Source: a virus
Taxonomy: Duplodnaviria; Caudoviricetes
DNA: 64,000 nt
Reading direction: 5' to 3' (one strand)
Virus record (IMG/VR): IMGVR_UViG_3300028886_000051
This document shows positions 4,324-58,160 of this stretch, piece by piece. The notes beneath the pieces were generated by a model, which was not told the DNA's origin, did no database searches, and saw only the letters and a program-made list of their open reading frames with translations. Both the position numbers and the translations under genes were made by a program. Within the stretch, counting starts at the first letter, position 1. Every line of letters begins with the position of its first letter.

Positions 4324-4394
4324 ATTAATATCACTCCTTTATATTTTATTTTAAATAAATAAGAGAGCCAACTTTGACATTGACTCTCCTAGAA

Positions 4395-7300
4395 TTATAA
4401 TGGTCTACAGTTATTTTTTTGCATACCTAATTTTTCTAAAGAAGTAGCGATTTTACTTGTTACATTCTTTGTTAATTGATTCTGCATATTTTCGAACTCT
4501 TTAGCAAAGTTCTTATCTATATTTCCCTGAACTGTTATTCCAGCATCTATATTTATGATAGGTGTAGAACTTCCAACCTTAGTAAAATTATTTTGTGGCA
4601 ACTTAAAAGTCTTAACAAAATCTTCTAGTTTAGGCGTAATTTCAGGAAGATTTGATACAAGTTTATCGAAAGACTTGGTTTGCTCTAATGATAAAACTCT
4701 TTCGCCTTTCTTTGCAAATATAGTAACATCTTCACCAAAACTTTGAGCTAATTTATTAGACTTTCCGTTAACCACGCCACCTTCTGCAAACATTGGAAAT
4801 GGAAGATATTTATTTATTCCTGCTGAAGGTAAATTACCTTGTCCAGATTGTTCACCTAGTTTCTTACGAATTTCGTCACTAAGACTTCTAATACCATCTG
4901 CGATTCCATTGCTGATTTTAGATATAGACGTGCCAAGAGCGACACCAGCACCTATTCCAGCACCAGCACCTATTCCATTAAGTTTATCAAGCTCATATCT
5001 AAGTCCATTTACTGAACTACTAGCCTTATTTGCAGCATCCTTAACGTTGTTAATAGAATTAACTGCACCATTACCATAGCCACTATTTAAAGCTGAACTT
5101 ATCCATTGTTTTAAATGAATAGACTCAACAGAAGTATTATAAAGATTTTGCCTAACTTTAGAAATTGCTTCATAAACTCCAGAATTATTACTAATATTAA
5201 ATGCTGACATTATAGTGCTTGCCATATTATTAGCCTGTGTCTGAACACTTTGAATATTAGTTTTAATTCCATTTAATTTAGCAGTAAAATTACTTGTGCT
5301 AGAATTAAGTGCCTGATTATATCCTGCGATAGCACTAGAACCTGTACGCCAAGGATTAATAATACAAGAATTAATAGATACATTTTGCTTTTTCTCTAAA
5401 TCTAATAAAGTTTTAGAAATCTCATTGGCTCTTGATTTGGCTTCGGCAATAGCTTTCTTTAATACTTTGTCTTCATTTTTTAAAGAATCCTTTAAAGCTT
5501 CGGTTCTTTTTTCTTGTGCATCCTTATAATCTTCTAACTCTTTATCCAAAGCATCGCTACGAGTATCTACAGCATGGTCATATTTATAATCTTCCAAATC
5601 ATTAACAGCTTCAGCAAGTTCAGCTTCAAGTTTTTCACGTTCAGCAATAGTAGCAGCATCATCTGACCCCATCATTGCATTGATTTTACGTTTAATAGAA
5701 GAAATTTCTTTTTCTTTTTGAACTATATTCTTCTTATATTCATATAAATCTTTTTCGGCTTGTAATGACTCTTTTTGCTTATTTATTAATTCTTCATAAG
5801 CATCAGTTTCATCGTTAATTGCATCAATAGCCTCATTAACTCTCGCTTCGGCTAAATCTAATATAGCCTTTTTAGCTTCTTCAGCAGTAGATATTGATGA
5901 AAATTGTGAATCTCTTAATTCATTCAATTTATCAGTGTACTCATTAATAGATACCTTGCCTTCTGAATATAATTTGTCAAGATATTTAATTTCTTCATTA
6001 TATTGAGAAACTTCATTTCTTGCCAATTCATATTTTTGAGCTAATAAACCAATTCTAGTAATTGATTCAGAAGTAAATTTACCATTTGAAGTAACTGTAT
6101 CTTTCTCTAATAGACTATTTAAACTGTCTAACTCACTTGAGATAGAAGAAAACTGGTCTTTAATCTTTTCAAGAGTATTCCAATGCAATTCATTAATAGA
6201 TTTCTGAAAATCTTTTAAGTCATTTTCACAAGATATAATAGAAGAATCTACATCTTGTAATGCATCATACATATCTTTCCATTCATTTGAACCATATTCA
6301 ATACCATTTCTTAATGCAGAAGTCATTTGAGAAGTAAGTGTATCACGTTCTTCTTTAAGTATCTGAATTTGAGATTTAGTTTCGGTTATTAATTCTTCAT
6401 AGAATCCTTGACCAACATTTTGTTCCTGAGTTTCTAATAAACTAACAACATCTTTAATTTTAGATTTATTTTTATCTAAGATGTTATACATAGAATCAAA
6501 ATCATCTTTGATGTTGTTGAATTTATCAACTTCAAGATCTTTTAATGTCTGTTTTAACTCTATTAATTGAGAATTAATATCATCTACTTTATCAGCCCAA
6601 GTCTGGTAATTCTTAATTGCATCAGTAACCTCGGAATTTCCATTACCAATAAATTTATCTATTTCCAGACCACCTTCTTTGGCTAATCCTTTATATTGTT
6701 CGGGAATTTTAGCCAAATACTCATCAGCCATTCTAGTATATAAATCACTGACTTGTTCTAAGGTGTTCATTTTAGATTTATTGATGTCTACTAAACTATC
6801 AACTAAAGCATTTTTATTGGCTGAACCCTCTAACTGTTCAATATGTTTTTGGGTATCGTCAATTAATGTGTTTAAATGATTAAGTTTTTCTTCGGCAAAA
6901 TCTATTATATCAATAGAATCTTTAGAATTAGATTTAGAGGAATCTGAATTAGAATTACTTGCTCTTAAAGTCGCATCAGGGTTTGTATCAACTCCTAAAA
7001 TTGTTTTCTGAGTTAAATCAGATATTTTTTTAGAATCACTTTTTCGTTTATTCAAGACTTTATCTATTGTATCTTGAGATATTCCATTATTTAAAGCTTG
7101 AACCTTCCATGCTTCTAAAGCTGCTTCACTAACTGCATTATAACTTTCTGCTAATTCGTAATTTGTACTAGACAAATAAGTCATCGCATCTGCTTCAGTA
7201 TTAATGCCTGTTACATTATCAATAAGTCCTTGTTGCATTTGAGCTTCCATTGCAAGGAGTCTTGCTTTGGTTAATTCTTTCATTGATTCTGTATCAGTTT

Positions 7301-9524
7301 TTAAATTACCATCTTCATCAATTAAATAATCTAAAAATTGAGAGCCATTAGATAATATGGCTTGATACTGATCAACAGTAATATAACCAGTCTCATTATA
7401 TTGATCTATTGTATCCATTAAGCTAGTATAAGCCGATTGTATATTATCAAGTTGGTCAGATAATTGACCAAGTTTAGTTGAATTATTAGTATCGTCTTTT
7501 AATTTAAAAATATCTGATGGAGAATATTCAAAACTCTGAAAAGCTTGAGAAGTTTCATCTCTAAAAAGTTTTACAATATGACTTGCAGCTTTTTTAATAG
7601 ATTCTTCACCTTGGTTATCATACAAAGTTTGAGCTATACCTTTTAATAATTTTTTAGCTTCATCACTGGATAATAAATCTTGTTCAGTTAAATCTTCTCC
7701 AAATTGTTTTTTTAAAAGTTGTATTGCACCGTCCATACCAGAGAAGTGCATAAGGCGACCAACTACATCTGCCCAGTTTCCATTATTGTCATAATTTTGA
7801 CTATCGTCAACACCAGCATAAATTCCTTGAACAAATGTATCACCAATTTGTCGTCCCTGAGCATCAAACTCTTTCAATTCATCATCGGTAACTTTTCCAT
7901 CATCAGCATATGCTTCTGCAAGAATCTGATTAATATATTCTTCAACAGTATCTTTTGATAAGAATGTTCCATTTGGTAGAATAGGAGTAAATGCAACTTC
8001 CCAACCATTGCCATTTAAGTCTTCTCCAAAACGTTCAGAACCACCAAATACAGTATCAATAGAACCTACTTCTGGATCATAATCCCAACTTGCTAATGCA
8101 TCTGCATAAGTTTGTTTAAGTTCGTCAGACCAATTAATAATGGTACGTTTATCCATATCGACATTGCCAAATACAGTTTGAATAGTACCATTCTTAATTT
8201 GTTCAGCATAATCATCGAGACCCCAGTCGGAGATTTTTTGATATTCTTCTTCAAGTCCTTCTATTATGCCATTAGAATTAAATGCCTGTAATATATCTTC
8301 ATCACTAAGTCCATTTTCGATTTTCGCTTTTAATGCCTTACCTATATCCTTGAAGCTATCTTTATTTAAAATTCTAGTGATATTTTGGTCAGCCCAAGAG
8401 TCGAAATCAATATATTTAAGATAAGATAGTTGTTCATTTAATTTGTCTTGTACTTCCTTTGAAGACATCTGTTCAGGATAATTTTTATTAATATCTTGAA
8501 TAAGTTTAGAAACTTCAGTATATCTTGCTTTAATTATTTCTAAATCTTTTTCAGCAATTATTTCTAAAGCTTTTTCAGCCTTTTCATCATCAAGATGAAT
8601 ATCATTTATAAATCCTAGCCCTTTACTATTAATATATTTATTATATTTATCTTTAGCTGTAGAGGAATAACTATTTATTTTTTCAAGTTCATCAATAGCG
8701 TCTTTAAGTTTTTCATAATCAGTATCTTCATGTCTTGCTTTTTCAATTCTATACCATCTTTCAAAACCTAAAGTAGTCAAATCAGTTGGTTTCCATTTTT
8801 TAGCTTTACCTTCTTTACCTTTATTGGTAGTAAAATCCAAGTCATCTTTTTCAATTAAAGTTTGAACATAATCTTTACCAACTTGATCTTGTGAATCTTT
8901 AAGGATTTTTTTCTGTGATTCTAACTGACGATTAATTTCTTTAAGATTTTCAATCTCTTGCTTATCAACATAAGTAATATTATCTAAATTCTGAATCTCT
9001 TCAATACGTTTCTTATTATCTTCAAGAGAAGTATTAATATCTTCGATTTTTTGCTTGTTGGTCTCAAAAGTTTCATTTAAATTTTCAAGTTTTTTATTTA
9101 AATTAGCAATCTTATCAACCTTTTTATTGTATTTTTCAATACCTTTATTAATTAATTGAATGCCAGAACTAATAATAGCTCCAATCACCATACCACCAAA
9201 CATATTTAATACATCTGCACCAAGAGTTCCAAAGAAATTCTTGATTGACGCTCCAATGTTTTTTAAGCTAAATTTGGTAGCGTTTAATTGCTCTTGGTAT
9301 GCCTGAAGATATGTCTGACCTTCTTTAAGGATGATGTTACCATTACGAATTGATTTAGCAAACGAAATAGATTCTTTAGATGCCTGTGGATATTTCTGGA
9401 TTAATGATTCTAATTCGATTTCTTTATTATATAAATCTTTATTATTTAAAAAATCCTTTGTATCGTTATTTATATCTATAATTTTCCCAAAACTAAAACC
9501 ATTTTTATTATCATAATGTGCAAG
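4395..9524 (-). CDS. Tape measure protein, exon 3 (1709 codons plus stop)
   Basis: The frame stays open for 107 codons upstream of the track's ATG (9203), up to TAG at 9527-9525, with no start codon or RBS. It begins CTT GCA CAT (LAHYDNKNG), exactly at the predicted 3' splice site. Long coiled coil with a C-terminal FAEGG motif. Confidence 0.85.
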   Translation of the reverse strand, partial: LAHYDNKNGFSFGKIIDINNDTKDFLNNKDLYNKEIELESLIQKYPQASKESISFAKSIRNGNIILKEGQTYLQAYQEQLNATKFSLKNIGASIKNFFGTLGADVLNMFGGMVIGAIISSGIQLINKGIEKYNKKVDKIANLNKKLENLNETFETNKQKIEDINTSLEDNKKRIEEIQNLDNITYVDKQEIENLKEINRQLESQKKILKDSQDQVGKDYVQTLIEKDDLDFTTNKGKEGKAKKWKPTDLTTLGFERWYRIEKARHEDTDYEKLKDAIDELEKINSYSSTAKDKYNKYINSKGLGFINDIHLDDEKAEKALEIIAEKDLEIIKARYTEVSKLIQDINKNYPEQMSSKEVQDKLNEQLSYLKYIDFDSWADQNITRILNKDSFKDIGKALKAKIENGLSDEDILQAFNSNGIIEGLEEEYQKISDWGLDDYAEQIKNGTIQTVFGNVDMDKRTIINWSDELKQTYADALASWDYDPEVGSIDTVFGGSERFGEDLNGNGWEVAFTPILPNGTFLSKDTVEEYINQILAEAYADDGKVTDDELKEFDAQGRQIGDTFVQGIYAGVDDSQNYDNNGNWADVVGRLMHFSGMDGAIQLLKKQFGEDLTEQDLLSSDEAKKLLKGIAQTLYDNQGEESIKKAASHIVKLFRDETSQAFQSFEYSPSDIFKLKDDTNNSTKLGQLSDQLDNIQSAYTSLMDTIDQYNETGYITVDQYQAILSNGSQFLDYLIDEDGNLKTDTESMKELTKARLLAMEAQMQQGLIDNVTGINTEADAMTYLSSTNYELAESYNAVSEAALEAWKVQALNNGISQDTIDKVLNKRKSDSKKISDLTQKTILGVDTNPDATLRASNSNSDSSKSNSKDSIDIIDFAEEKLNHLNTLIDDTQKHIEQLEGSANKNALVDSLVDINKSKMNTLEQVSDLYTRMADEYLAKIPEQYKGLAKEGGLEIDKFIGNGNSEVTDAIKNYQTWADKVDDINSQLIELKQTLKDLEVDKFNNIKDDFDSMYNILDKNKSKIKDVVSLLETQEQNVGQGFYEELITETKSQIQILKEERDTLTSQMTSALRNGIEYGSNEWKDMYDALQDVDSSIISCENDLKDFQKSINELHWNTLEKIKDQFSSISSELDSLNSLLEKDTVTSNGKFTSESITRIGLLAQKYELARNEVSQYNEEIKYLDKLYSEGKVSINEYTDKLNELRDSQFSSISTAEEAKKAILDLAEARVNEAIDAINDETDAYEELINKQKESLQAEKDLYEYKKNIVQKEKEISSIKRKINAMMGSDDAATIAEREKLEAELAEAVNDLEDYKYDHAVDTRSDALDKELEDYKDAQEKRTEALKDSLKNEDKVLKKAIAEAKSRANEISKTLLDLEKKQNVSINSCIINPWRTGSSAIAGYNQALNSSTSNFTAKLNGIKTNIQSVQTQANNMASTIMSAFNISNNSGVYEAISKVRQNLYNTSVESIHLKQWISSALNSGYGNGAVNSINNVKDAANKASSSVNGLRYELDKLNGIGAGAGIGAGVALGTSISKISNGIADGIRSLSDEIRKKLGEQSGQGNLPSAGINKYLPFPMFAEGGVVNGKSNKLAQSFGEDVTIFAKKGERVLSLEQTKSFDKLVSNLPEITPKLEDFVKTFKLPQNNFTKVGSSTPIINIDAGITVQGNIDKNFAKEFENMQNQLTKNVTSKIATSLEKLGMQKNNCRPL

Positions 9525-9581
9525 CTAATAATAAATATAAACTTTGTATTTATTAATCTGCTTTAATTTTAGAAAAAATAA

Positions 9582-9604
9582 TGGTATAATAAATAAAAAA
9601 GGAG
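9582..9604 (+). promoter_or_regulatory. SigA-type extended -10 promoter and RBS for the intron-embedded antisense gene
   Basis: TGgTATAAT at 9582-9590, followed by AAAGGAG before the ATG at 9615. Confidence 0.65.
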
Positions 9605-9614
9605 ATTTTATAAT

Positions 9615-10091
9615 ATGAATCATAAACCAAGAGTAATGTGTTGTCCTAACTGTAAAAAGAATAATAGAACACATAATTCATCGAAATATGTAACGCCTGC
9701 TGCATATTTTTCAGCATATATTAATAAAGAAGATACATATTGTAAATATTGTGGTTGTCGTTTGTCGCCTATGAATATTGACGTGTTTGAATTTGGAATA
9801 ATTGCAGATATATCAGGCGACCCATCATTTATTATAGCAATGGATGATCTTAAACAAAAAGACCCAATAGAATTTCAACTAAAAATGTCACAATTCAAAA
9901 CTCAATTACAACAACAAAAGGGTAATGAACAAATAGAAAATAGTAACTTAATCCATTGTCCTAAGTGTAATTCAACTGCAATTACAACAGGTGCTAGAGG
10001 AGTCAATAATTTCTGGGGACTTCTTGGTGCAAGCAAAACTGTTAATCGTTGTGGTAACTGTGGTTATACTTGGAAACCGAATAATTGGTAG
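9615..10091 (+). CDS. Zn-ribbon protein (moron-like cargo inside intron 2), 158 aa
   Basis: Own promoter and RBS. Four CxxC pairs; C-terminal CPKCNST...GLLGASK...RCGNCGYTW module. Antisense to the tape measure gene. Confidence 0.8.
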   Translation: MNHKPRVMCCPNCKKNNRTHNSSKYVTPAAYFSAYINKEDTYCKYCGCRLSPMNIDVFEFGIIADISGDPSFIIAMDDLKQKDPIEFQLKMSQFKTQLQQQKGNEQIENSNLIHCPKCNSTAITTGARGVNNFWGLLGASKTVNRCGNCGYTWKPNNW

Positions 10092-10251
10092 AAGTAGAAG
10101 AAGATAACCGTCCTAAATGTCCAAATTGTCATTCAACCAACATAAAAGCTATAACTGGTACTGAACGAGCAATGTCTATTATGGGGTTGGGTATCTTCAG
10201 CAAAAAATCAATAAGGGTTTTAAATATCTGAACTGTAAGTATACTTGGTAA
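10091..10251 (+). pseudogene. Frameshifted remnant of a paralogous Zn-ribbon C-terminal module
   Basis: Reads EVEEDNRPKCPNCHSTNIKAITGTERAMSIMGLGIFSKK, then after a frameshift in the A-run INKGFKYLNCKYTW*. No start codon. Confidence 0.7.
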
Positions 10252-10274
10252 ACATGTGTACTAATTATCTTATC

Positions 10275-10309
10275 ATAAAAGAGAGTGGCAATATTACACT
10301 CTCTTTTAT
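10275..10309. terminator. Bidirectional intrinsic terminator inside intron 2
   Basis: ATAAAAGAGAGTG / CACTCTCTTTTAT inverted repeat with A/T tracts on both sides. Confidence 0.7.
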
Positions 10310-10321
10310 AAGGTGTACACA

Positions 10322-10484
10322 TAAAGAAAACACCTAGCAATAACTAGATGTTTTCCATACAGTTTATAACCATTGGAATATATTCAGTTTCACTAAAAAT
10401 CAGTGCGAATACATTTGCCCCAATGTACAACGAAAGAAATAACACAATGTCAAATCTTTCGCAACAGTCATATTTGTTTTTGTA
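10322..10484 (-). ncRNA. Putative ~160-nt sRNA inside intron 2, downstream of the MazF/PemK remnant
   Basis: TTGACA (10518-10513), 17 nt, TATTAT (10495-10490). No ORF. Terminator hairpin at 10355-10326 followed by a U-rich tail. Confidence 0.55.
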
Positions 10485-10522
10485 TTATTATAATACACTA
10501 TATGCATTAATATGTCAATAGG

Positions 10523-55355: not shown

Positions 55356-58160
55356 TTATTTGAAATTCAATAAGAACTTATCTTTGTTCATTTTATATAA
55401 TAAATTTAATACTTTTCTTGTATATTTAGAAGGATTTAGAGATATTTTTTTTGAATTTCCGACACCAGTATCAAGAGAAAGTGCAACCTCAATTAATCTG
55501 TTAATGGTAACAATATTTCCAATTTTTATTTTTTTCAATTGTTCAACGACTTCTTTAGATTTTTCTACTAATAAATCAGAACAAGTTTCAGAATCATCAT
55601 AATATTTTAATTTTGTATTTTTTACATAATTGTCATATTCAACAATAATCGACATAATTTTTGTCATCTGTCTATCATGACCTCGACCATGTATTTTTAT
55701 AAAGAAATCAGAAACAGGAATAGTGTTAGAAGTAGAAGCATTTTGAATCTTATTTATCCAATCTTCAAGCCAGTTCATAGGACACAATAAGTCTCGATTG
55801 ATACGACTTTTAAGTTTGTTCTTTGATTCATCAATTTCCTCTTGTGGAAGTTCTTTACCATCTTTTGTATATTTAATTTCTCTTGTATATTTCATGAACT
55901 CAGGAAAATCATATTTCTTATACTTTGGTTTGCCTAAATCCGTATATCCAACAATTCTTTTAATACTCATACAAGGAAGTTTACTAATTCTATCAATCTC
56001 TTTGTTGCCATCAATTTCATATTCTCTTTTACACCCATCAATGATAACTTGTGCAAGAACGGACAGAATAATAAAATTATCATAAAGTTCTTTAAGTTTA
56101 TCTTCGTCTGGATTCTCTTTTTGTAATTCAGTCCAATAGTATGTCATTGCCAACTGAGCCAAATTACTTGAATACCCAATTCCCATGCGTGACTTTGAAA
56201 ATTTATTATCCATTGCAGCATAGTCCTTTTTTGTATTATTGTAGGTAATACCAGATTCTTGTAATGCATTCACAATAGTATAGAACTCTTTATAGCATCT
56301 TTCAGCACACTTAACCATTGTCGATTGATTTGTAACTAAGAAGAAATCGGAGTCAAAATCACAACCGTTTGCACGATCTTGTATATCTGTATGTATACAA
56401 TTAACCGCCATGATATTATTGCTAAATACAAAATATTTGTCCATTTCTTCTGAATAGACATTATGTAAATAGCATATATTGTTTGGAGAATTATGTGGAT
56501 TTCTAAACGCTGCAAGATATTCATTATTGTCAAAACGTTTAGTATAACATTGGATACAATTAGACTCTTGAGAAAGTGTCGAATCTTTTTCAAAATCCTC
56601 ACCAACAGAGTAGAGTAGAAGTGCATAAGGATTACCACATACGGTCAAGTTATCACCATTGACCATAATTTTTCCTTTACGCATTCTAAAGACATATTGC
56701 TTAATTATTTCTTTTTTTTCATATCGAAAGAATTTACTGTTGGCAAACTCATGATTCTGAGCATATAAATCAGCAAGCATTTCATAATGATTTACTTCAT
56801 TTGCATATTTTCTGAGAAATTTTTCAAACGCATCATTATCACGTTTAAGTAATTCAACATAATCAATGCTAATATGAGCAATATCTTTAACATCATCCTT
56901 TGTACATGGAAGAGTATTGACCATCTGATAGCTCAACTGCTGATATTGTCCCAACTTACTTGGATGATCCGTTTTAACAATGCCCCATACATCACCATCT
57001 GCATGAATTCTTTTACACCAATATTCATATGCTTCAGTAATATTACTGCCCATTAAATCTTGAAATTTTTTCCATTTAATCGCATTATCAGTAGTTATCA
57101 TCTTAATATCTTTCAAATAATGCCATTCACCAAACATATCTTGAACTTGGTATGTATTATAATCATATCCATTTTTTTTACACCAATCTTTGAAAAACTT
57201 TTGAAGATAGCTTTTAAAAGCACATGCCTTGAATAGATGATTTCTGAGCAAAGCCATCCCATTAATATATGATGGAAGAGAAAGATAATTAGGATCTGCT
57301 TCGATTAAAGCCATCCCGTCCCAAATTGTATTTTTTACCTGACGTTTTTCTTCGGTTACAACACATTTTTTTCGTTTTTCAATCACTTTTTCATTTTTAT
57401 TGGTTTCTTTATTTTTCTTTTTAACTTCAACTTCGTATTCTTCTGCCTTAACAACTTTTGTCATTGTTTCAAAAAAAGAATCCTGATCTTTGAGAATTAG
57501 AATATTCTCAACGGGTATATGAAGTGTACCAATAATGGTAGAAGTGGTAAGTGGTGCGTAAGCTGACATTTCAACGATTTTCGCATTATCATGGCTCATT
57601 TTATTCCCCAGTCCAATTGTCAACCAATCATATGCAATGTCATATAATTTACTATTTATGAAAATAACTTGTCCAAGTTTAGCTTTAGCACTTGTACGAA
57701 AAAGCATCTCATAATGAATTGTTTCTTCTTTAATTGTTCCGTCTTTGCGTTTACGCTTATATGTAACGTCAACACCATTTTCATAAAAATACTCTCGAAT
57801 TTCGTCTCGTGATTTTTCGTCATATAAGTCTTTTCTGTCTTCAACTTTTTGTAATGCCTGTTTAATACGTTCTTTGGAATCACCGTCAGTATTATTAAAT
57901 AACTTTTCCAATCGAACATGTTCATTATTGTATGATCTACTTCCAAATTCATAATCAAGACAAATTATATCTCGTGTGCTTTCATTTTTTTTACCAGATT
58001 TTCCTTTATAAATATTTAATCCATTTTTTTGCAAGAAAAAACTAAATAAGCTATTATTAAACATTGCATCAGTATATGTAAAATAATCTCTTGTACCAAG
58101 ATTTACGTCATATAACATTCCAGCACTAATGTTTTTTATTTTAATTCCATATTCACTCAT
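55356..58160 (-). CDS. YonO-like single-subunit phage RNA polymerase
   Basis: 934 aa with DGMALI, FRNPH and the catalytic NGCDFDSD (DxDxD) motif of double-psi beta-barrel polymerases. SPbeta-like context. Confidence 0.85.
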   Translation of the reverse strand: MSEYGIKIKNISAGMLYDVNLGTRDYFTYTDAMFNNSLFSFFLQKNGLNIYKGKSGKKNESTRDIICLDYEFGSRSYNNEHVRLEKLFNNTDGDSKERIKQALQKVEDRKDLYDEKSRDEIREYFYENGVDVTYKRKRKDGTIKEETIHYEMLFRTSAKAKLGQVIFINSKLYDIAYDWLTIGLGNKMSHDNAKIVEMSAYAPLTTSTIIGTLHIPVENILILKDQDSFFETMTKVVKAEEYEVEVKKKNKETNKNEKVIEKRKKCVVTEEKRQVKNTIWDGMALIEADPNYLSLPSYINGMALLRNHLFKACAFKSYLQKFFKDWCKKNGYDYNTYQVQDMFGEWHYLKDIKMITTDNAIKWKKFQDLMGSNITEAYEYWCKRIHADGDVWGIVKTDHPSKLGQYQQLSYQMVNTLPCTKDDVKDIAHISIDYVELLKRDNDAFEKFLRKYANEVNHYEMLADLYAQNHEFANSKFFRYEKKEIIKQYVFRMRKGKIMVNGDNLTVCGNPYALLLYSVGEDFEKDSTLSQESNCIQCYTKRFDNNEYLAAFRNPHNSPNNICYLHNVYSEEMDKYFVFSNNIMAVNCIHTDIQDRANGCDFDSDFFLVTNQSTMVKCAERCYKEFYTIVNALQESGITYNNTKKDYAAMDNKFSKSRMGIGYSSNLAQLAMTYYWTELQKENPDEDKLKELYDNFIILSVLAQVIIDGCKREYEIDGNKEIDRISKLPCMSIKRIVGYTDLGKPKYKKYDFPEFMKYTREIKYTKDGKELPQEEIDESKNKLKSRINRDLLCPMNWLEDWINKIQNASTSNTIPVSDFFIKIHGRGHDRQMTKIMSIIVEYDNYVKNTKLKYYDDSETCSDLLVEKSKEVVEQLKKIKIGNIVTINRLIEVALSLDTGVGNSKKISLNPSKYTRKVLNLLYKMNKDKFLLNFK

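Follow-up and report, generated by a model that had tools for sequence, protein, structure and literature searches.

How can a phage make the full-length messenger RNA of an essential late gene when signals resembling a promoter and two transcription terminators lie in the path of the transcript? This question is raised by a 64,000-nucleotide stretch of DNA (hereafter, the window) that represents the reverse strand of the linear 145.7-kb IMG/VR virus record IMGVR_UViG_3300028886_000051, which has a G+C content of 31% and an estimated completeness of 85%. On the minus strand of the window, the gene for the tape measure protein (TMP) consists of three exons separated by two introns, and the signals in question are located within intron 2 (1749 nt; 9525-11273). 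A first-pass annotation of this DNA proposed that the signals serve as an antitermination gate for TMP synthesis, or that they reflect natural trans-splicing. Our analysis points to a different explanation. Judging from sequence comparisons, the promoter and hairpins are probably the boundaries of self-contained accessory units, of the type called morons, that reside in a variable cargo bay of a group I intron. The terminators would then be a by-product of the cargo rather than an evolved gate. We favor this reading because the signals lie outside the blocks conserved among related introns, are unique to the window genome, and are replaced by unrelated signals of the same kind in each of the other cargoes scanned.

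The intron core, its relatives and the cargo bay

Intron 2 has a conserved core on its 5′ side, followed by the variable cargo bay and a conserved 3′ tail. Homologues of the core were found in nine IMG/VR contigs and 11 human-gut metagenome contigs, and a twelfth metagenome locus carries only the last core hairpin. Thus, at least 21 gut-phage or prophage contigs, including the window, carry this intron core. Comparisons of the 3′ end make use of the 12 homologues whose sequence covers it. The nine IMG/VR contigs share the whole core of the window (11285-10776) with 91 to 94% identity. Similarity is lost at approximately 10780, where the putative ribozyme core (P1 to P9.x; 10776-11273, minus strand) ends, and is regained only at an antisense gene for a zinc (Zn)-ribbon protein and in the last ~45 nt of the intron. 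The segment that lies between the core and the Zn-ribbon gene or tail differs from contig to contig. The introns, 13 of which are measurable, have lengths of 1749 (the window copy, which is the shortest), 3219, 3511, ~3720, 4089, 4287, 5766, 6086 and ~6912 nt.

The proteins encoded by the cargo of relatives include ToxN/AbiQ, NsnA/GmrSD_N-like proteins, DUF3800, DUF4145, an ANT/Bro antirepressor and a small DNA-binding HTH protein. Across the contigs, genes of the anti-phage defence type occur on both strands of the cargo. One relative (L117; 8751-9560, minus strand of the locus) carries a complete type III toxin-antitoxin system in the sense orientation, with a promoter, three ~35-nt repeats, a terminator hairpin and a ToxN/AbiQ gene (Pfam E-value of 4e-43). 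In a comparison with 42 related loci, including 20 with the same intron, none contained the window promoter, its small RNA or either hairpin. All seven homologues scanned have sense-strand terminator-like hairpins of their own in the cargo, which are different from those of the window, and the cargo of another relative (L061) includes sense promoters matching the consensus at 11 and at all 12 of 12 positions. Morons are autonomous units that vary among relatives, and the same pattern is observed here, with cargo unique to the window genome flanked by a core and tail that are shared. In addition, a second kind of promoter-short RNA-terminator unit is present in L061 (5262-5470), where a 12/12 promoter with a TG precedes GAAATGGGTGTCCATT, which is present twice, and a strong terminator (-19 kcal/mol).

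There is good evidence from comparative sequence analysis that the segment 11273-9525 is a group I intron with predicted splice sites at 11274|11273 and 9525|9524. The internal guide sequence AUGUGCAAG-GCUCAG (11205-11219, minus strand) is expected to participate in both P1 and P10. Its GCUCAG portion pairs with the exon 2 end CUGGGU to yield a P1 with the terminal U·G pair that is a hallmark of group I introns, and AUGUGCAAG pairs with the start of exon 3 to form a P10 of 9 bp. P1 is supported by covariation among three exon/guide variants (CUGGGU/GCUCAG, CUGAGU/GCUCAG and CUGAAU/GUUCAG) that preserve every pair, including a double change from G·C to A·U. Compensatory double changes also occur at five core pairs in the alignment of homologues evaluated with RNAalifold. 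The P7/P3′/P8/P7′ block (10903-10951, minus strand) includes the R and S elements CGACUACCAAG (10951-10941) and GGUAUAGUC (10911-10903), and the R/S pattern CGACTACCAAG...GGTATAGTC matches 82 viral contigs, among them the nine IMG/VR contigs with the whole core. For one of these (L069), the Rfam model RF00028 aligns the R and S motifs to both strands of P7 with an E-value of 2.5e-9 and a score of 48.2 bits. A search of 20 loci with the same motif at E ≤ 0.01 gave best RF00028 scores of 48.2 and 39 bits, both below the cutoff of 50. The P3 stem (CCUCU/AGAGG) was spotted by eye and carries no covariation signal because its columns are invariant.

The 3′ end of the intron is equally regular. The terminal G is located at position 9525 and is followed by the exon 3 start CUUGCACAU (9524-9516), which is the P10 partner; together they span 9516-9525 on the minus strand. 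In every homologue whose 3′ end is covered, a terminal G precedes CUUGCA..., which pairs with the guide as P10. This pairing has 9 bp in the window and is shortened to 8 bp with one G·U in L051-type tails and to 6 bp in L061-type tails. Three tail types were read residue by residue and retain both the terminal G and P10, and the remaining homologues end alike. The reading frame was checked in three homologues, where no codon is split by the splice junction and a long exon 3 frame opens in phase at that point. In the window, exon 2 (11274-12011, minus strand) ends with ...AAG CUG GGU at the 5′ splice site (11274/11273) and encodes a PhageMin_Tail domain at positions 85-197, and exon 3 (4395-9524, minus strand) comprises 1709 codons in a frame that opens at 9524 without a start. 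Thus, the placement of the signals inside a 1749-nt intron by the first-pass annotation is borne out by P1 covariation, the terminal G and P10, the R/S motif and the conservation of the core. Independent translation of exon 3 was considered and rejected, as the window sequence has no start codon or ribosome-binding site near the 5′ end of this exon at 9524, and the first ATG occurs 107 codons in.

In contigs that share the core at 91 to 94% identity, the adjacent exon 2 DNA (11963-11680) is only ~66% identical, which suggests horizontal movement of the intron among TMP genes that have diverged. No recognizable homing endonuclease is present within intron 2. Several homologues are located within contigs of 200 to 350 kb, and the size of these contigs suggests that they are integrated prophages.

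A second intron-like core, unrelated to the first, interrupts the TMP gene of 21 further relatives (L004-L025) only a few codons away (e.g., L004, 6720-12036; L016, 6716-10780). Its guide UUUUUAGUUG-GUCAA pairs by eye with both exon ends, and five loci of this family gave no match in Rfam. The cargo of the second family extends over 2 to 5 kb and encodes TnpB, TIR, HTH, LytTR, DUF4760, GmrSD_N, DUF3800 and other proteins. In L004 and L016, the two loci that were translated, the cargo is followed by the same antisense Zn-ribbon gene.

Promoters, hairpins and decayed cargo in the window

As the first-pass annotation had noted, a near-consensus promoter of the SigA (sigma-A) type, TTGACA-17-TATTAT, is present on the minus strand at 10490-10518. 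It matches at 11 of 12 positions with a spacer of 17 nt and is the top match within 8800-13400. The promoter begins just past the stop codon of a MazF remnant and precedes a strongly folded RNA that ends in the first of the two hairpins (hairpin 1). The span from promoter to hairpin 1 would thus correspond to a putative structured RNA of ~165 nt (10320-10483, minus strand), and the RNA from promoter to hairpin 1 (168 nt) has a predicted minimum free energy of -51.8 kcal/mol with a z-score of -6.0. This small RNA contains no tandem repeats and does not resemble the promoter-RNA-terminator unit of L061 in sequence. It also has no Rfam match when the window is searched at gathering thresholds or when 8800-13400 is searched at E ≤ 10. 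Beyond chance matches of 11 to 13 nt, no second copy or antisense target is found in the 145.7-kb genome. Within the small RNA is a 33-codon GTG frame (10344-10445, minus strand) with a hydrophobic N-terminal half, an acidic tail and a stop codon inside hairpin 1. It resembles a type I toxin mRNA, with no clear ribosome-binding site and no database support.

Two intrinsic terminators had been proposed at 10355-10326 and 10309-10275, and terminator-like hairpins are indeed found at these positions. Hairpin 1 (10325-10356, minus strand) closes the small RNA unit. It has 14 pairs and a folding free energy (ΔG) of -19.0 kcal/mol (z-score of -8.8) on the minus strand, compared with -10.4 kcal/mol on the plus strand, where it is weaker because of G·U pairs. 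This strand asymmetry identifies hairpin 1 as an element of the minus strand. Hairpin 2 (10275-10309), located between two convergent units, is symmetric and is better described as a bidirectional terminator-like structure, with ΔG values of -17.7 (minus strand) and -16.9 kcal/mol (plus strand), UUUUAU tails in both directions and a loop of 9 nt. It was not called by the terminator scan because this loop exceeds the limit of 8 nt set by the tool. Hairpin 2 lies ~180 nt past the stop codon of the plus-strand Zn-ribbon gene and is therefore at least as plausibly the terminator of that gene.

Both structures have the stable stem-loop and U-tract expected of intrinsic terminators, and in both the U-tract is imperfect. 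It is conceivable that the hairpins do not terminate transcription in vivo and instead are RNA-stabilizing 3′ structures, processing sites or chance palindromes, in which case there would be no read-through problem to explain. The interrupted U-tract of hairpin 1 (UUUAUGUGU) and the 9-nt loop of hairpin 2 are compatible with such a role. However, none of 200 shuffled sequences folds as well as either hairpin (z-scores of about -8.7), and the two structures are positioned exactly between two convergent units, which is a classic place for terminators. We therefore consider this alternative to be quite improbable. The possibility that the hairpins are peripheral helices of the ribozyme was also examined and rejected because both lie outside the block that is conserved among homologues.

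The convergent unit is transcribed from the opposite strand. An extended -10 promoter, TGgTATAAT (9582-9590, plus strand), is located 60 nt from the 3′ splice site (9525), in agreement with the convergent promoter predicted at about this distance, and is followed by AAGGAG and then by an ATG at 9615. The promoter tool did not list it because its -35 element is weak. The same TGgTATAAT sequence is found in the L051 and L128 tail types, and the L061 type has TGtTATACT. The gene (9615-10091, plus strand, antisense to TMP) encodes a 158-amino-acid protein with two Zn-ribbons formed by four CxxC pairs, and is followed by a decayed second C-terminal Zn-ribbon module (10085-10231, plus strand). Searches of Pfam, PHROGs and the ESM Atlas with the protein returned generic zinc-ribbon or hypothetical families only. 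In both intron families, homologues of this gene occupy the 3′ portion of the insert in antisense orientation, and they adjoin exon 3 where no further cargo follows. A 36- to 44-nt stretch at the stop codon of the Zn-ribbon gene (10058-10101) is 97 to 100% identical in L051, L126 and L127, whose surrounding sequences differ. This stretch is likely a recombination junction for cargo exchange.

On the core side of the bay is a MazF/PemK toxin remnant (10523-10735, minus strand; Pfam PF02452, E-value of 7e-7). It corresponds to profile positions 47-108 of 109, which is the C-terminal part only, has no start codon, and has no close relative in viral contigs. Between this remnant and the core, just outside the latter, lies an antisense-oriented terminator-like hairpin (10738-10765, plus strand). 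A counterpart of unrelated sequence is found at the same relative position (intron ~490-540) in all seven homologues scanned (L051, L061, L109 and L115-L118), and it looks as if these hairpins keep antisense transcription of the cargo out of the ribozyme. One metagenome relative (L121; 11123-11191, compared with window positions 10800-10735) has the same cargo over the first ~45 nt, with the antisense hairpin included, and then diverges precisely at the start of the MazF remnant (10735), which marks a cargo breakpoint.

The window bay would thus hold decayed cargo, composed of the MazF remnant and a promoter-driven structured RNA of ~165 nt that is ended by hairpin 1. Opposite to it would be a convergent, antisense Zn-ribbon unit that uses its own extended -10 promoter and is ended by the bidirectional hairpin 2. 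Decay of this kind brings up another possible explanation, which is that the entire copy is a prophage relic in which transcription stops at the hairpins and no full TMP of ~3480 residues is made. In addition to the MazF remnant and the decayed second Zn-ribbon module, this idea draws on the nature of the record, which is linear with 85% estimated completeness, and on the several homologues in 200- to 350-kb contigs that suggest integrated prophages. The signals needed for splicing tell against it. P1, the guide, the core, the tail motif described below, the terminal G and P10 are all intact, as are all three long TMP exon frames, and homologues with larger cargo retain the same intact signals. 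A defective copy is therefore unlikely in our view.

Possible joining of exons 2 and 3 across the cargo

If the signals are boundaries of cargo units, how might exon 3 be joined to exon 2? One clue comes from the last conserved core hairpin (10793-10823, minus strand), whose 11-nt loop contains ACUUUGUA (10812-10805). No variation is seen in this loop among nine aligned sequences, and its stem exhibits a compensatory change from C·G to U·A. The exact complement of the loop, UACAAAGU, is found in the 3′ tail at 9541-9548 (minus strand). The motif occurs 14 to 20 nt before the terminal G in all 12 homologues with a covered 3′ end, where it is the sole conserved block in otherwise diverged tails. 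Among its variants, UGCAAAGU retains a G·U pair and UACAAAGC loses the terminal pair. We infer that the pairing of ACUUUGUA with UACAAAGU, together with P10, may tie the 3′ splice site to the core across the cargo. A role of the motif as a -35 element for the Zn-ribbon gene was also considered. However, the spacing between the motif and the -10 element is variable, and the motif is retained in L061, whose tail adjoins a different gene. Since its position is kept regardless of whether a Zn-ribbon gene or an antirepressor gene adjoins, the motif is not part of the Zn-ribbon promoter, and this candidate role was rejected.

It is therefore possible to envision a TMP mRNA that is made in cis, in which late transcription would run through the cargo and the distant 3′ splice site would be returned to the core by the ACUUUGUA/UACAAAGU loop-tail pairing and the 9-bp P10. 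If exons 2 and 3 are joined in this manner, then read-through is logically required, as the first-pass annotation recognized, with both hairpins in the path of the transcript. One route past them would be leaky termination, which could suffice because few copies of TMP are needed: each virion or tail requires only a few tape measure molecules.

A second route might involve the phage polymerase to which read-through had been attributed, a YonO-type enzyme that would lack the flap domain on which hairpin-dependent termination relies. A candidate single-subunit RNA polymerase of the YonO family, 934 amino acids in length, is indeed encoded by the window (55356-58160, minus strand), with matches to phrog_8308 at E-values of 3e-88 and 1.3e-90 and a DFDSD motif. 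In a control search of 14 genomes with phrog_8308, Bacillus subtilis was the sole match. The homologue in phage PMBT24 is annotated as an RNA-dependent RNA polymerase, and no solved structure matches the YonO-like protein. YonO is highly processive, pauses little and transcribes the late genes of SPbeta as one operon (PMC5467207). It also lacks most domains of multi-subunit polymerases, and a role of the flap domain in hairpin-dependent pausing and termination has been described separately (PMC5467207). Thus, the gene proposed to mediate read-through is present, and none of the studies consulted demonstrates resistance of the polymerase to intrinsic terminators.

Regardless of the polymerase involved, hairpins of this type are common on the late-gene strand. 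We identified 20 terminator-like hairpins with ΔG values of -13 kcal/mol or lower on the minus strand of the 64-kb window, mostly between structural genes. Late transcription must therefore cope with such signals everywhere and not only in the intron, and read-through looks like a general property of late transcription here rather than a device specific to TMP.

These same observations bear on the proposed antitermination gate, according to which the hairpins are selected to block transcripts of the host polymerase so that full-length TMP pre-mRNA is made only with a terminator-resistant late polymerase or an antiterminator, thereby restricting TMP synthesis. The logical need for read-through in cis-splicing, the YonO-family gene and the strong minus-strand structure of hairpin 1 are all consistent with a gate. 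However, the hairpins, promoter and small RNA are found in none of the 42 related loci, including the 20 with the same intron. The cargoes of the seven homologues scanned bring in unrelated terminators, one of which is the internal terminator of a type III toxin-antitoxin system, and the 20 similar hairpins along the same strand of the window show that such structures are not peculiar to intron 2. Moreover, the timing of TMP synthesis is already fixed by whatever drives the late operon. The restriction of TMP by a gate is thus not supported, and we consider it an unlikely reason for the presence of the hairpins.

The alternative offered by the first-pass annotation was that the core and the 3′ exon reside on separate RNAs joined through P10. 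One RNA would include exon 2 and the core and another would include the tail and exon 3, and the 8-bp loop-tail pairing and the 9-bp P10 are two independent pairings that could hold the 3′ RNA on the core. Some features of the intron family fit this arrangement. Sense terminators are present in all seven homologues scanned, and L061 has a strong sense promoter (11/12 with a TG) from which transcription of two cargo genes would continue into the tail and exon 3 without meeting a called terminator. In the window, RNA from a 10/12 minus-strand match at 10291-10264 would start just past hairpin 2. However, both terminators are located downstream of the promoter at 10518 that was named in this context, so that RNA initiated there stops short of the 3′ exon and cannot supply exon 3. 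Between 10275 and 9548, the only minus-strand promoter matches are of 10/12 or fewer, and such matches are expected about once per kb by chance. In addition, the genes are colinear on one strand, which is the arrangement of a cis-intron, and we know of no bacterial or phage group I intron that splices in trans. The separate-RNA proposal is therefore unsupported in the form given, and natural trans-splicing seems very unlikely.

We are similarly hesitant about a broader version of this idea, in which part or all of the TMP mRNA is assembled from a 5′ RNA cut short at cargo terminators and a 3′ RNA that starts within the cargo and is docked by the loop-tail pairing and P10. Although far-fetched, two-RNA assembly would explain why the intron family tolerates any cargo, terminators included, and, to our knowledge, would be the first natural case of group I trans-splicing outside organelles.

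We return, therefore, to cargo-unit boundaries and cis-splicing as the preferred reading, against which several points must be weighed. The window contains five promoter sites of at least 11/12, compared with 4.6 ± 2.1 in dinucleotide shuffles, or ~0.06 expected per intron strand. By itself, the 10518 promoter is a chance-level match for the window, and it is the context of the promoter, not its match score, that adds weight to it. The loop-tail pairing is backed by conservation and one G·U variant, with no genuine compensatory change. In a single sequence, it is not unusual for an AU-rich tail of 45 nt to contain, by chance, 8 nt that are complementary to a core of 520 nt, and other complements of 7 to 11 nt are present. 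The intron itself is not matched by RF00028 when the whole window is searched at the gathering threshold or when 8800-13400 and a 491-nt core slice (10800-11290) are searched at E ≤ 10. Furthermore, viral contigs yielded no intron-less allele in which the exon 2 end is fused to the exon 3 start. A megablast search of GenBank phages with 9000-11600 and a tblastn search with the exon 3 N-terminus also gave no match, and the latter result means that there is no uninterrupted close homologue to confirm the junction. The absence, among the studies consulted, of a demonstration that YonO ignores intrinsic terminators belongs here as well. Finally, the cargo of the window copy is decayed, and so the copy itself could be defective.

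Known systems and neighboring features

The features of the bay are themselves ordinary. It is their location that is notable, in a cargo bay within a widespread group I intron, invisible to Rfam, of an essential phage gene. The closest precedent for the intron architecture may be the group I intron in nrdD (sunY) of phage T4, which Michel and colleagues reportedly described in Genes Dev in 1992 as having a remote 3′ splice junction. In both cases, the intron begins with its core, a long insert lies ahead of the 3′ splice site, and 3′-end sequences pair back to the core to define or activate the site, although for the intron described here the loop-tail pairing is a prediction. The T4 insert is a single sense-strand open reading frame (ORF) of the endonuclease type that is smaller than 1 kb. 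In contrast, the inserts described here are variable, multi-gene cargoes of 1.3 to 6.4 kb with genes on both strands, their own promoters and terminators, and no recognizable homing endonuclease.

Group I introns that splice in trans are found in organelles, such as those in the cox1 genes of placozoans and lycophytes. Their halves are located at separate loci or strands, are transcribed from separate promoters and are joined by base pairing of peripheral elements. The pairings proposed above could in principle associate two halves in a like manner. Unlike the organellar examples, all parts of the TMP gene are colinear, and no credible promoter for the 3′ half was found in the window.

The cargo units resemble phage morons in that each combines a promoter, a gene and a terminator into an autonomous unit and differs from one close relative to another, and morons are often defence-related and expressed from the prophage. 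Morons are normally located between genes, whereas the units here are inside an intron of an essential late coding sequence, which places their terminators in the path of a required mRNA. The window unit is also reminiscent of ToxIN/AbiQ systems, as in both a sense-strand promoter is followed by a short structured RNA and then an intrinsic terminator, and a complete example occupies the same bay in L117. It is not such a system because its small RNA has no tandem repeats and no ToxN ORF follows the hairpins.

A further point of comparison is ND5-717 of hexacoral mitochondria, a giant group I intron that carries genes and is removed by unconventional RNA processing, named as back-splicing in the title of the source (PMC6545197). 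ND5-717 and the TMP intron are alike as group I introns that harbor multiple unrelated genes and whose removal has to span many kilobases. They differ in that ND5-717 is organellar and hosts core mitochondrial genes, whereas the TMP intron is in a temperate phage and carries swappable, defence-type cargo near its 3′ end.

If the TMP intron does splice, then phage introns can be insulated carriers of accessory and defence islands, and a ribozyme can find a 3′ splice site that is several kb away, apparently aided by a short motif for docking. Likewise, late transcription in SPbeta-like phages must be largely indifferent to intrinsic terminators, which is a testable prediction for polymerases of the YonO type. 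There is also a practical consequence for annotation. Automated annotation can be expected to split such TMP genes into separate ORFs and to miss the intron, because Rfam does not detect it.

The remaining features concern the source genome and the rest of the TMP gene. Other genes on the record include those for a serine integrase, the YonO-family polymerase candidate, NrdD, a DNA polymerase and a ligase. The closest TMP homologues are encoded by the large Clostridia phages Enterocloster PMBT24 and C. difficile LIBA2945 and by one human-gut contig. Exon 1 of the TMP gene ends at ~12960 (minus strand) and is separated from exon 2 by intron 1 (minus strand), which contains a LAGLIDADG ORF (Pfam E-value of 5e-29). 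Intron 1 is confirmed by relatives that do not carry it, in which exons 1 and 2 are contiguous. At the other end of the gene, a 12/12 plus-strand promoter (4374-4401) overlaps a minus-strand terminator hairpin (4391-4360) directly after the TMP stop codon, forming another convergent unit. In the C. difficile phage LIBA2945 (L003; 8717-9040), the TMP region is annotated as two genes with a gap of ~320 nt, and the match to exon 2 starts at 9001, inside this annotation gap, which may therefore be a small unannotated intron.

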